Shown: positions 4,944-8,633, counted from the first letter of the stretch. The stretch is DNA of 45,206 nucleotides from Escherichia phage Envy (NC_031081.1), one strand, 5' to 3'. Program-made: numbers and translations. Notes: generated by a model from the sequence alone, not told the origin.

Positions 4944-6368
4944 ATGGCACGTTTCCGACGTCGCGAATATCAGAAGTTGATAACCGCGTTCATCCTCAAG
5001 CATAAGCGCTGCAATATTTGGGCGACAATGGGGTCGGGTAAAACCGGCGCGACCATGTGGGCGCTGAATAAAATGTTCCAGACTGGCGTCCTGTCCCATC
5101 ATGAGGACCGCGTACTGGTGCTGGCCCCGCTGCGTGTTGCGTCGGGTACATGGCCACCGGAACAGGAGAAATGGCGATTCTCATCCCTGCTGGTCGTAGA
5201 CGGCACCGGGCCGGAGAAGGACCGTATTGCGGCGCTTGAGAGCGACGCTAACGTGGTTTGTGTTAACTACGATGTGGTTGAGTGGCTGGTCGACTATTAC
5301 GGCGATGCGTGGCCCTTTACGGTCGTTGTTGCCGATGAATCGACTAAGCTGAAAGGCTATCGTAGCAAGCAGGGGAGCAAGCGCGCCCGCGCACTGGCAG
5401 CGATTGCACATAAACACGTCAAGCGCTGGATTAACCTTACCGGCACACCAGCGCCAAACGGGCTAAAAGACTTATGGGGTCAGACGTGGTTTGTCGACGG
5501 TGGCGAACGCCTCGGCAGTAGCTATAAGGCATTTACCGACCGCTGGTTCATTAGCAAGCCTGTTAAGCCTGGCAGCTTCACTATGCAGCACGCTCCGCTA
5601 AAGAACTCCGAGAAAGAGATACAACAACGTCTGTCAGATGTATCCCTCACCGTTGACGCGGCTGAATACTTCGGGTGCGACAAGCCAATCTATACGCCGG
5701 TTGTTGTGGACCTGCCGAAGAAAGCGCGCAAGATTTATGACCAGTTTGAAAGCGAGCTATTTGCAGAACTGGAAAGCGGAACAGTGGAAGCGGCGAACGC
5801 GGCGTCGAAGACAATTAAGTGCCTTCAGCTTGCATCCGGCGCTGTGTATAAGGTGGACGAAGACGGCGAACGGACCGACGAGTGGGTGAAGATTCACGAC
5901 GCGAAGCTGGACGCGCTGGAAAGTATTGTGGAGGAGTTGAACGGAGCGCCGTTGCTCGTTGCGTATCAGTATAAGCATGACCTGGCACGTCTTAAGAAGA
6001 AATTTCCGCACGGCGTTGCGTTGGGTAAAGGTAAGCAGGGCAATAAGGATATGGAAGCATGGAACAGGGGCGAGATCCCCATCATGTTTGCACACCCGGC
6101 ATCGGCGGGCCACGGCCTTAACTTGCAGGACGGCGGTCATCACCTGGCAATCTTCTCCGATACCTGGAACTTTGAGCACTTTTCGCAGATCGTTGAGCGT
6201 ATCGGGCCGGTTCGCCAGATGCAGGCCGGGCACCCTCGACCGGTATTCGTCTACATTATCCAGGCGCGCGGGACACTGGACGAACTGGTCGCGGAGCGTC
6301 GCGACAGTAAGCGAGACATTCAGGACGATTTAATGGAATACATGAAAGCTAAAAAGGCGCGCAAATGA
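4944..6368 (+). CDS. SNF2/DEAD-like superfamily 2 helicase
   Basis: Walker A MGSGKTG, DExx-like VVADES, NLTGTP; internal ATG at 4944 with RBS. Confidence 0.8.
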   Translation: MARFRRREYQKLITAFILKHKRCNIWATMGSGKTGATMWALNKMFQTGVLSHHEDRVLVLAPLRVASGTWPPEQEKWRFSSLLVVDGTGPEKDRIAALESDANVVCVNYDVVEWLVDYYGDAWPFTVVVADESTKLKGYRSKQGSKRARALAAIAHKHVKRWINLTGTPAPNGLKDLWGQTWFVDGGERLGSSYKAFTDRWFISKPVKPGSFTMQHAPLKNSEKEIQQRLSDVSLTVDAAEYFGCDKPIYTPVVVDLPKKARKIYDQFESELFAELESGTVEAANAASKTIKCLQLASGAVYKVDEDGERTDEWVKIHDAKLDALESIVEELNGAPLLVAYQYKHDLARLKKKFPHGVALGKGKQGNKDMEAWNRGEIPIMFAHPASAGHGLNLQDGGHHLAIFSDTWNFEHFSQIVERIGPVRQMQAGHPRPVFVYIIQARGTLDELVAERRDSKRDIQDDLMEYMKAKKARK

Positions 6369-7060
6369 TAATCTGGTCATTGTTTGACGGCAGCGGCTTG
6401 ATGATTGAGCGTGCTGCCGAGATGGGGCATAAGTGCTACTGTTTTAACTACTCCGAAGCCGATCACGGGTCGTACCTGGACTACCGGATTTATGGTCGCG
6501 GGATCCGATATCGCAATGAGTTTATTGATCTGGACTTTGTAGACCGCGCGATGAATGGCGATTTCGGTACGCCAGATATCATCTACGCATTCCCGCCGTG
6601 TACTGATCTGGCGGTGAGCGGTGCGCCAGCTTTCCCGCGCAAACGCGCCCGCGACCCGGCCTTCCAGCTTAAGGCGGTGCGCACCGCGAAGATCGCCGCG
6701 TACCTGGGTGACTTCTTCGAAGTGCCGTATATGATTGAGAATCCGCGCAGTGTGCTTTCCACCCAGTGGCGCAAGCCGGATCACTCATTCGACCCGTGGG
6801 AGTATGGGGGATATCTGCCGGAGGATGACGTACACCCGCTCTTCCCGGAATACATCAACGCCCGCGATTCATATCCGAAGCTGACCTGCTTATGGACCGG
6901 CAACGGCTTCCGTATGCCAGAGAAGAGACCTGTTTTCGTTGAAAAAGGGTACTCGAAGCAGTATAGTCGCCTCGGAGGCAAATCAGCCCGCACAAAATTA
7001 ATCCGGTCGCTCACTCCGCGCGGCTTCGCGATAGCGGTTAACGAGGAAAATTTAAAATGA
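6365..7060 (+). CDS. compact DNA (cytosine-5)-methyltransferase-like protein
   Basis: LFDGSG (motif I-like), AFPPC (motif IV-like Pro-Cys), MIENP (motif VI-like); only 231 aa; ATGA overlap with helicase stop. Confidence 0.45.
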   Translation: MIIWSLFDGSGLMIERAAEMGHKCYCFNYSEADHGSYLDYRIYGRGIRYRNEFIDLDFVDRAMNGDFGTPDIIYAFPPCTDLAVSGAPAFPRKRARDPAFQLKAVRTAKIAAYLGDFFEVPYMIENPRSVLSTQWRKPDHSFDPWEYGGYLPEDDVHPLFPEYINARDSYPKLTCLWTGNGFRMPEKRPVFVEKGYSKQYSRLGGKSARTKLIRSLTPRGFAIAVNEENLK

Positions 7061-7377
7061 ACGCTACATACGAACCAATCGATTTTTCGGTCGCAATGAC
7101 TAACCAGCTATTCACCTACGACAGCAAAACCGGAGTCATCCGCCTGAAGTCCACCGGATGCAAGATTGGCAACATCAACACCGCCGATGGCGGAACCCGT
7201 ATCGAATGCAACGGCAAGACGCTGTCTGGCGCACGCGTGGCGTGGATTATTGCGACGGGCAATACAATCCCTCCAGGCTTCGCCGTTGTGTGCCGCCAGC
7301 GCACTCCAGGGCACTACGGCAACCGCATAAGCAACCTTTATCTTGTGGATGTGATGAGCGACCCAAATTTCTTTTAA
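7057..7377 (+). CDS. hypothetical protein, possibly degenerate HNH-like
   Basis: 106 aa, ATGA overlap with upstream gene; GHYGNRISNLYLV weakly resembles HNH core. Confidence 0.5.
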   Translation: MNATYEPIDFSVAMTNQLFTYDSKTGVIRLKSTGCKIGNINTADGGTRIECNGKTLSGARVAWIIATGNTIPPGFAVVCRQRTPGHYGNRISNLYLVDVMSDPNFF

Positions 7378-7385
7378 TAAATTGG

Positions 7386-7414
7386 TTGCAGTACGGGATT
7401 GGTTGCATTATATT
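7386..7414 (+). promoter_or_regulatory. sigma70-like promoter (TTGCAG-17-TATATT) with two ATTGGTTGCA direct repeats
   Basis: hexamers and spacing upstream of 7461 CDS. Confidence 0.45.
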
Positions 7415-7415
7415 G

Positions 7416-7443
7416 AGGGTGTTCCGAAGGGAACGCCCTTTTT
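7416..7443 (+). terminator. terminator-like hairpin ending the upstream operon
   Basis: AGGGTGTTCC-gaa-GGGAACGCCCT then TTTTAAT. Confidence 0.45.
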
Positions 7444-7460
7444 AATATGAGGATTTGACA

Positions 7461-7703
7461 ATGAAACGAGTATTTTTTGATTACGACGGTGATTTACGGT
7501 TATGGGTGTGCATTGTGCTGTTCTTATTCTTTTGCCTCCTGCTGCCGATTTCCTGCACGTATAACCTCGATAAATATGAATGCCGTATTGTCTACGCAGA
7601 ACTAACAGGTCGTAACACCCAGTGGCGCTATGGCACTTGCTGGGTTGAAATGGACGGCAAATTTATACCACGCAAAGAAATTCGCATGACGGATATTAAA
7701 TAA
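7461..7703 (+). CDS. small membrane protein (about 80 aa)
   Basis: GAGGA RBS 7 nt before ATG; hydrophobic stretch LWVCIVLFLFFCLLLPI. Confidence 0.5.
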   Translation: MKRVFFDYDGDLRLWVCIVLFLFFCLLLPISCTYNLDKYECRIVYAELTGRNTQWRYGTCWVEMDGKFIPRKEIRMTDIK

Positions 7704-8161
7704 TGAAAATTTTACAAGAAGAGAAAGCGTATTGGGTAGCACAGTGTCTTGAAGCCCGCGAGAAAGCGGAAGGAGCTACCGCGCTGGCGGACACCTACCT
7801 GGCGAGCTATGAAGGCGAGGAGAAGGTCCGAAAGGAATTAGAGGAACGCTTCGAACTGCTGGGCGAACTGATCACCATTATGCAGCGCACCGGGTACACA
7901 ACATCCGTATCGCTCACCCGGCTAACCGCCGATGCCCTGCGCGAGCATTACAAACTGGCCGAGGAGTACGTCCGTCCGAAGGGCAGCCAGTCTTCGATCC
8001 CGCGGAAAGGACTGGTGCATATAGCGTGGCGTGCAAACGGCAGCTACTATTCCGATAGCCGACCGCTCAGTAAGGAGGAGATGTCCAGAGTCCAACGCGT
8101 GCTATCCAGCGGAAAGAAAACCGCCCTGTATGCGATAGATCCAGACTATGCAGAAGAGTGA
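7703..8161 (+). CDS. hypothetical protein (152 aa)
   Basis: ORF coupled to neighbours (TAAATAATG). Confidence 0.55.
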   Translation: MKILQEEKAYWVAQCLEAREKAEGATALADTYLASYEGEEKVRKELEERFELLGELITIMQRTGYTTSVSLTRLTADALREHYKLAEEYVRPKGSQSSIPRKGLVHIAWRANGSYYSDSRPLSKEEMSRVQRVLSSGKKTALYAIDPDYAEE

Positions 8162-8633
8162 GCAGAAAGATAGCTGGCGCACGCCGCCAGCTTTATTTAA
8201 ACCGCTGCGCCGTAAGTTCCGATTCCGTTACGATATGGCGGCAAGCGACGCCAACCACCTGCTACCGCGTTACTTCACGGCAGAGCACAGCGCGCTTGAT
8301 GTGGACTGGTCCGAGTTGAAAGGGTGGAAGTGGTGCAATCCGCCGTATTCCGATCCGCTGCCGTGGGTCGAGTGCGCAGCGCACGGACGCCGGACTGTCA
8401 TGCTACTGAATCAGGACACGTCGACGAAGTGGGCGAGGCTGGCCCGGAAGACTGCAAACCTGATAATTCTTCTGGACTGGCGGATTAGATTCATTCACGC
8501 CGTCACCGGTGAAGTCGGGCCGAGCAATAACAAGTGCCAGCAATTGATAATATTTGACGAAGCGCCGCCCAGCGGCAGCGCACAAATTGAAATAATGAGC
8601 GAGAGTGAGCTACATGAATATCTTAGTCGTTGA
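8148..8633 (+). CDS. Dam-like DNA N6-adenine methyltransferase
   Basis: WRTPPALF...FRYDMAASDANHL...WCNPPY (NPPY catalytic motif). Confidence 0.75.
   Translation: MQKSEQKDSWRTPPALFKPLRRKFRFRYDMAASDANHLLPRYFTAEHSALDVDWSELKGWKWCNPPYSDPLPWVECAAHGRRTVMLLNQDTSTKWARLARKTANLIILLDWRIRFIHAVTGEVGPSNNKCQQLIIFDEAPPSGSAQIEIMSESELHEYLSR

Follow-up and report, generated by a model that had tools for sequence, protein, structure and literature searches.

Two genes in the replication-gene region of a 45,206-nucleotide stretch of Escherichia phage Envy DNA (NC_031081.1; hereafter the window) probably encode a pair of orphan methyltransferases, a compact cytosine-5 (C5) enzyme of 231 residues and a Dam-type adenine enzyme of 161 residues, that are presumed to methylate replicating phage DNA. 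We put the probability of this reading at roughly 0.8. The window is a permuted copy, at 100% identity, of KX534339.1 (Escherichia phage Sloth, genus Dhillonvirus), window positions being those of that record minus 7643, and we refer to its proteins by the name Sloth. As no restriction endonuclease gene was identified beside either methyltransferase gene, we regard both enzymes as orphans. The gene pair itself is an already known feature of Dhillonvirus and T1-like phages.

The case for the C5 enzyme begins with its catalytic motifs. Translation of the reading frame recovered the three C5-like motifs that the first-pass annotation had reported (LFDGSG, FPPC and ENP, for motifs I, IV and VI), all in their expected places (Table 1). 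We assessed their conservation in two alignments, one of closer relatives (A1) and one of 74 diverse relatives with a mean column identity of 29% (A2). F7, G9, S10 and G11 of motif I are invariant among the closer relatives. All 74 diverse relatives keep C79 (the predicted nucleophile), E125 and P127, and conservation reaches 90% or more at F76, P77, N126 and K172. Strand β2 closes with Asn28, at a site where 90% or more of the wider family has Asp; this site appears to match that of the acidic residue in motif II that binds ribose.

The C-terminal half of the protein departs from the usual plan. A family-specific conserved block at residues 135-190 has the pattern WRKPD, GGYLP, HP, RDxYPKxT, W177 and GF..P185, with W135, R136 and K172 conserved. 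We infer that this block takes the place of both motif VIII and the greater part of the target-recognition domain, with a role in DNA binding; the conserved WRKP (135-138) and YPKxT (170-174) segments may replace motif VIII. The only variable stretch of this half, residues 191-205, is a candidate minimal specificity loop. It occurs in two forms, GYSxQ...LGGKS in Sloth and DNPGW..LGGKS in the homologue from phage KarlJaspers and in relatives P0108, P0112 and P0120. Near the C-terminus, an RSLTPRG box is probably the counterpart of motif X, as judged by eye. The closer relatives all keep R214, S215, L216, P218, R219 and G220, and of these R214, P218 and G220 hold at 90% or more in the diverse set.

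Structure prediction, a check that had been proposed together with the first-pass annotation, gave a confident model and C5 methyltransferase matches. The AlphaFold2 model, built from 27 sequences, has a mean predicted local distance difference test score (pLDDT) of 90.7 and a predicted template modelling score (pTM) of 0.89. It adopts the class I methyltransferase fold, dependent on S-adenosylmethionine (AdoMet), with C5 topology and with the strand-helix order of that class; motif IV comes after a strand at residues 72-75, and motif VI closes a strand at residues 122-126. The best Foldseek matches of the model were DNMT3A and DNMT3B (E ~1e-6), and in the BFVD viral structure library the search returned phage proteins named "DNA-cytosine methylase". 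In structural comparison the model scored 13.7 against DNMT3B (185 residues aligned), 12.4 against 8yf3 (a carboxymethyl-transferring C5 enzyme), 12.2 against 3g7u (a prophage C5 methyltransferase), 12.1 against DNMT3A, 11.3 against M.HhaI and 10.9 against M.HaeIII.

At the sequence level, the protein matches the phage family phrog_757 ("DNA methyltransferase") with E = 5e-82 over residues 1-229. Three relatives that are 62-63% identical to it, P0023, P0026 and P0060, clear the cutoff of the C5 methyltransferase profile PF00145 (28.5, 24.7 and 25.4 bits, respectively, against a cutoff of 22), and the alignment pairs their residues 5-104 with profile positions 4-92, which run from motif I through motif IV; the KarlJaspers homologue scores 11.1 bits on the same profile. 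A search of the PDB with the single Sloth protein sequence returned noise only, so that the relation to canonical enzymes rests on the fold and on those relatives that pass PF00145.

We found the compact architecture to be widespread. Close homologues number 2,864 in a large protein collection, and an exhaustive profile search gathered 1,917 clusters (50% identity), mostly of about 210-260 residues. A tblastn search with the protein matched 1,510 phage records, among which are Drexlerviridae, Dhillonvirus and Vequintavirus-type phages infecting hosts such as Escherichia, Klebsiella and Salmonella. Of the 153 phage records with a match at the DNA level (mostly Dhillonvirus), 147 retain 80% or more of the gene's length. 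In the type phage HK578 and numerous siblings the gene bears the annotation DNA (cytosine) methyltransferase or Dcm-like. The description of the enzyme as unusually compact was therefore not upheld: the protein is indeed compact, but this is normal in its large phage family and not peculiar to this phage. Likewise, the proposal that the protein is too short for a standard target-recognition domain agrees with its 231 residues and single short variable stretch, but this shortness is not unusual within the family. No fused domains were detected by Pfam scan in ten longer relatives (284-453 residues). The gene is under strong purifying selection, with a ratio of nonsynonymous to synonymous substitution rates (dN/dS) of 0.026 in comparison to phage Oekolampad and 99.1% protein identity at a synonymous divergence (dS) of 0.26. 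Annotation across this group is inconsistent. The Sloth, Lust and Gluttony records label the gene "hypothetical protein", and the 99% identical proteins of McMelon and Oekolampad are named DNA methyltransferase or Dcm-like C5 cytosine methyltransferase.

The most direct evidence for cytosine methylation comes from a homologue. The product of KarlJaspers gene bas06_0055 (236 residues) is 54% identical to the Sloth protein over residues 2-231, and phage K42, the subject of a preprint on retron Ec86 (Wang et al., bioRxiv 10.1101/2023.08.16.553469), shares 95.4% identity with KarlJaspers/Bas06. In that study, every K42 mutant that escaped the retron carried a lesion in or just upstream of a 711-bp gene called "dcm", and this gene expressed alone was toxic only in retron-carrying cells (bioRxiv 10.1101/2023.08.16.553469). 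By mass spectrometry coupled to liquid chromatography (LC-MS), wild-type K42 Dcm led to high 5-methylcytosine in the retron's multicopy single-stranded DNA (msDNA), and a C82A/E128A/K175A/K176A mutant did not; mutation of CCTGG in the msDNA stem abolished defence (bioRxiv 10.1101/2023.08.16.553469). K175 and K176 had been picked by superposition on DNMT3A (bioRxiv 10.1101/2023.08.16.553469). Three of the four mutated residues are kept in Sloth, where C82, E128 and K175 correspond to C79, E125 and K172. The link between Dcm and retron Eco1 is treated as established in later papers. For one member of the compact family, 5-methylcytosine activity in vivo has thus been reported. The earlier suggestion of a cytosine-modifying enzyme is supported by the fold, the invariant catalytic motifs, the PF00145 matches of relatives and this 5-methylcytosine-raising homologue; its alternative, a related base-modification enzyme, found no support.

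The second enzyme, as judged from its sequence, is an ordinary member of a known family. The Dam-like protein with an NPPY motif described in the first-pass annotation was borne out by translation and by a match to PF05869 (phage Dam; E = 1.5e-35, 122.8 bits against a gathering cutoff of 28.1) that spans profile positions 5-148 of 169. The protein also matches phrog_111 with E = 9e-56, and it is 30% identical (E = 5e-14) to the 233-residue Dam-like protein of KarlJaspers, a T1-like phage. Its gene has a dN/dS of 0.082 in comparison to Oekolampad, indicating strong purifying selection. We found no solved structure related to it by sequence, and a literature search on Dam of the HP1/T1 type yielded nothing usable. 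The small phage Dam methyltransferases of PF05869 and TIGR01712 include those of T1, HP1 and VT-2, and by analogy with characterised members of the family the target of the Sloth enzyme is most likely GATC.

Several observations weigh against our reading, and they concern identity, specificity and role. The Sloth C5 protein itself has no Pfam match (E up to 0.1), PF00145 included, and no NCBIfam match; with its own score under threshold and its relatives passing, its membership in PF00145 is only transitive. Two family profiles reached no solved C5 methyltransferase significantly, the only C5 enzyme among the noise being DNMT2 at E = 1. The sequence contains neither a QxRxR motif VIII nor a normal target-recognition domain. 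In the comparison to K42 Dcm, K176 is replaced by Leu173, and loop 191-205 differs between Sloth and KarlJaspers, so the CCWGG site proposed for K42 cannot simply be transferred. The Dam-like protein scores 88.6 bits on TIGR01712, under the equivalog cutoff of 97.05; it would accordingly count as a family member but, by the NCBI criterion, not as an equivalog. Genome counts near Markov expectation (CCWGG, 155 observed and 162 expected; GATC, 170 observed and 203 expected) lend our reading no help and are uninformative either way. The BASEL study found no pattern linking methyltransferase genes to restriction resistance in Drexlerviridae, and Dhillonvirus phages are described as comparatively sensitive to restriction-modification. 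Finally, natural deletion variants show that the C5 gene is dispensable.

The clearest such variant is phage Opt212 (OL770278, L011:2507-2707), in which an in-frame deletion has removed residues 12-180 and left 66 codons, fusing SLFDGSG directly to FRMPEK. Partial copies also occur in PS2 (48% of the gene) and Shigella phage 1b (23%; records PV637039 and OR420686). K42 gets past retron Ec86 by losing this very gene, and by analogy we speculate that Opt212, PS2 and Shigella phage 1b may owe their deletions to evasion of retron Eco1 or other defences that sense methylation.

From these data we propose the following model. The C5 protein would be a pared-down, AdoMet-dependent enzyme that keeps a Rossmann-type catalytic core, and in which block 135-190 and loop 191-205 replace the canonical motif VIII and a target-recognition domain of 80-100 residues. 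As in all C5 enzymes, the target cytosine would be flipped out, Cys79 would attack C6, Glu125 would protonate N3 and the methyl group of AdoMet would be transferred to C5. The Dam-type enzyme would methylate adenine at N6. Both would presumably be expressed together with the replication genes and methylate phage DNA as it replicates, and the marks would protect that DNA from restriction enzymes blocked by them, whatever the methylation status of the host. The C5 mark may carry a cost, as in the 54% identical homologue the same activity on the msDNA of retron Ec86/Eco1 triggers abortive infection. The retron papers interpret phage Dam and Dcm as anti-restriction enzymes, and we consider this a plausible role for both Sloth enzymes.

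The alternative that survives best is that both enzymes are active but serve mainly another purpose, for example to mark replicated DNA, to control gene expression or packaging, or to interfere with host mismatch repair or other methylation-sensing defences. Escherichia coli K-12 hosts already have Dam and Dcm, so extra marks of the GATC or CCWGG type would protect little there; the BASEL results point the same way, and both genes sit in the replication module beside a helicase gene. The strong constraint on the C5 gene, in spite of a homologue that triggers a retron, further implies a benefit large enough to offset that cost. However, the compact family is not known to have such a phage-internal function, the isolates with large C5 deletions speak against an essential internal role, and the retron papers favour anti-restriction. 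We judge this alternative clearly less likely than not.

Much less probable is a C5 fold put to other use, with RNA or tRNA as the substrate, as for DNMT2, or with transfer of a non-methyl group, for example carboxymethyl from carboxy-AdoMet. DNMT2 was the sole C5 enzyme glimpsed by the sequence profiles, and with the target-recognition domain missing the substrate cannot be read from sequence. Against this, the DNA enzymes DNMT3B, 3g7u, DNMT3A, M.HhaI and M.HaeIII match the model with equal or higher scores, and the 5-methylcytosine detected by LC-MS on msDNA with the K42 homologue depends on Cys, Glu and Lys residues that are conserved in Sloth. The least credible alternative, a decayed and catalytically dead remnant of a longer enzyme that lost its target-recognition domain, could draw on a length about 100 residues below that of solved bacterial C5 enzymes, on the missing Pfam match and on the truncated copies in some phages, but it is contradicted by an architecture common to most of the 1,917 clusters, an invariant catalytic Cys and Glu, a dN/dS of 0.026, a model that is compact and confident throughout, and a 236-residue homologue reported to be active in vivo.

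A separate question is how the C5 enzyme finds its target. We tentatively raise the possibility, which we hold at clearly less than even odds, that the compact family, including the Sloth enzyme, reads its DNA target unlike the solved C5 methyltransferases. In that case conserved block 135-190 and the variable loop of about 15 residues may replace the target-recognition domain, possibly as a dimer, and the specificity may be other than the CCWGG implied by the name "Dcm". What keeps this idea in play is a loop unlike that of K42, the one member studied by experiment, the lack of orthology with host Dcm, and the fact that the CCWGG site of K42 Dcm was proposed from msDNA mutants only (bioRxiv 10.1101/2023.08.16.553469). 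Orthology with E. coli K-12 Dcm (472 residues) was rejected: hhalign aligned 26 columns around motif IV with E = 0.18, placing the Cys79 region on the PCQ motif of E. coli Dcm. As hhalign finds no such orthology, the name "Dcm" is no reliable guide to the specificity of the phage enzyme. A literature search for a methylome or bisulfite study of the compact family in Drexlerviridae or Webervirus yielded nothing usable.

Two further arguments on specificity were considered and set aside. That MG1655, a dcm-positive strain, tolerates retron Ec86 was rejected as proof of a non-CCWGG site; it is a weak argument, as endogenous Dam also undermethylates msDNA. A role for the neighbouring, translationally coupled HNH-like open reading frame (ORF) as DNA-recognition partner was set aside on the grounds that K42 Dcm, produced in the absence of other phage genes, still triggered retron Ec86 and raised 5-methylcytosine on msDNA, and that KarlJaspers has no such neighbour. 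Across the whole window, other short sites fall below Markov expectation, with CTGCAG (PstI) found once (12.7 expected), CTAG 19 times (52.7 expected) and GGCC 162 times (240.6 expected).

The coordinates of both genes, their motifs and the adjacent features are collected in Table 1.

Table 1. Features of the methyltransferase region, in window coordinates (residue numbers refer to the encoded protein; CDS, coding sequence).
Feature	Position	Strand	Basis
Compact C5 methyltransferase gene, 231 residues, ATG start	6365..7060	+	ORF list; CDS ANY29925.1 ("hypothetical protein")
C5 motif I, SLFDGSG (FxGxG AdoMet-binding loop), residues 5-11, after strand β1	6377..6397	+	Translation
C5 motif IV, FPPCT, residues 76-80, predicted nucleophile Cys79	6590..6604	+	Translation; C79 invariance
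C5 motif VI, ENP (ENV-type), residues 125-127, Glu125	6737..6745	+	Translation; E125 and P127 invariance
Family-specific conserved block, residues 135-190, contains Lys172	6767..6934	+	Low column entropy, 74 relatives
Only variable stretch of C-terminal half, residues 191-205	6935..6979	+	Highest entropy of C-terminal half
RSLTPRG box, residues 214-220	7004..7024	+	Conservation; start of last helix of model
Small phage Dam-family N6-adenine methyltransferase gene, 161 residues, ATG start	8148..8633	+	ORF list; CDS ANY29929.1 ("DNA N-6-adenine methyltransferase")
NPPY catalytic motif IV of Dam-like enzyme, residues 64-67	8337..8348	+	Translation
SNF2-type DNA helicase gene	4944..6368	+	PF00176 E = 1.9e-10; phrog_62 E = 6e-157; CDS ANY29924.1
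HNH-endonuclease-like ORF, 106 residues	7057..7377	+	phrog_99 E = 8.6e-16; start overlaps C5 stop by ATGA
Terminator-like hairpin, 11-bp stem, 6 G-C pairs, T-rich tail	7415..7440	+	Pattern match only

The stop codon of the helicase gene overlaps the start of the C5 gene through the sequence ATGA. The HNH-like ORF that comes next has no Pfam match, the HNH model included, and visual inspection shows "VCR" where a "VDH" box usually supplies the histidine; from these sequence features it may be a catalytically dead, domesticated relative of homing endonucleases. Its dN/dS of 0.094 indicates purifying selection. The terminator-like hairpin sits between the helicase, C5 methyltransferase and HNH unit and the unit containing the Dam gene, which suggests that the two methyltransferase genes belong to separate transcription units. 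In this next predicted unit, the Dam gene is downstream of two small ORFs. An ORF of 152 residues (7703-8161, + strand) overlaps the Dam start and matches phrog_10530 ("DNA ligase") with E = 2.6e-87; no Pfam domain was found in it, the GenBank remark reads "Possible DNA ligase but no evidence", and its length falls far short of that of known ligases. Structures like that of the compact methyltransferase are also embedded in phage proteins of 1,126-1,397 residues (BFVD A0A6J5SE15 and A0A6J5NPY6), one of which carries the name "Helicase/UvrB, N-terminal"; a functional link between helicase and methyltransferase is possible.

In practical terms, ANY29925.1, now a "hypothetical protein", can be re-annotated as a DNA cytosine-5 methyltransferase, and the label "Dcm" should be taken neither as orthology with host Dcm nor as proof of a CCWGG site. 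The compact family has, to our knowledge, one of the shortest architectures among C5 methyltransferases. Present in about 1,500 phage records, the family serves at least one retron as an infection signal, and a DNA-bound structure together with a genome-wide target map would be useful for work on phage counter-defence and minimal methyltransferases. The practical value is modest, and it concerns the family as a whole, not the window in particular.

In comparison to known systems, the Sloth C5 protein shares motifs I, IV (PC) and VI (EN-) with M.HhaI and M.HaeIII, but it has 231 residues where those enzymes have 327-328 and solved bacterial enzymes in general 327-388, and their large target-recognition domain and QxRxR-type motif VIII have no recognisable equivalent in it. 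E. coli Dcm, also a C5 methyltransferase, is twice as long. DNMT3A and DNMT3B share only 13-16% sequence identity with the Sloth protein. The target-recognition region of DNMT3 enzymes is likewise unusually small; these enzymes form oligomers with DNMT3L and recognise CpG. This likeness to DNMT3 may serve as a lead, not a result, on how the compact enzymes read DNA. The nearest known system is the KarlJaspers/K42 Dcm, which belongs to the same family as the Sloth enzyme and has the same size and architecture, and both are orphan enzymes of lytic siphoviruses that also carry a PF05869 Dam. The two systems differ in loop 191-205, of the GYSKQ type in Sloth and the DNPGW type in KarlJaspers, and in gene neighbourhood, the Sloth C5 gene lying between the SNF2 helicase and HNH-like genes in an arrangement that KarlJaspers does not share.

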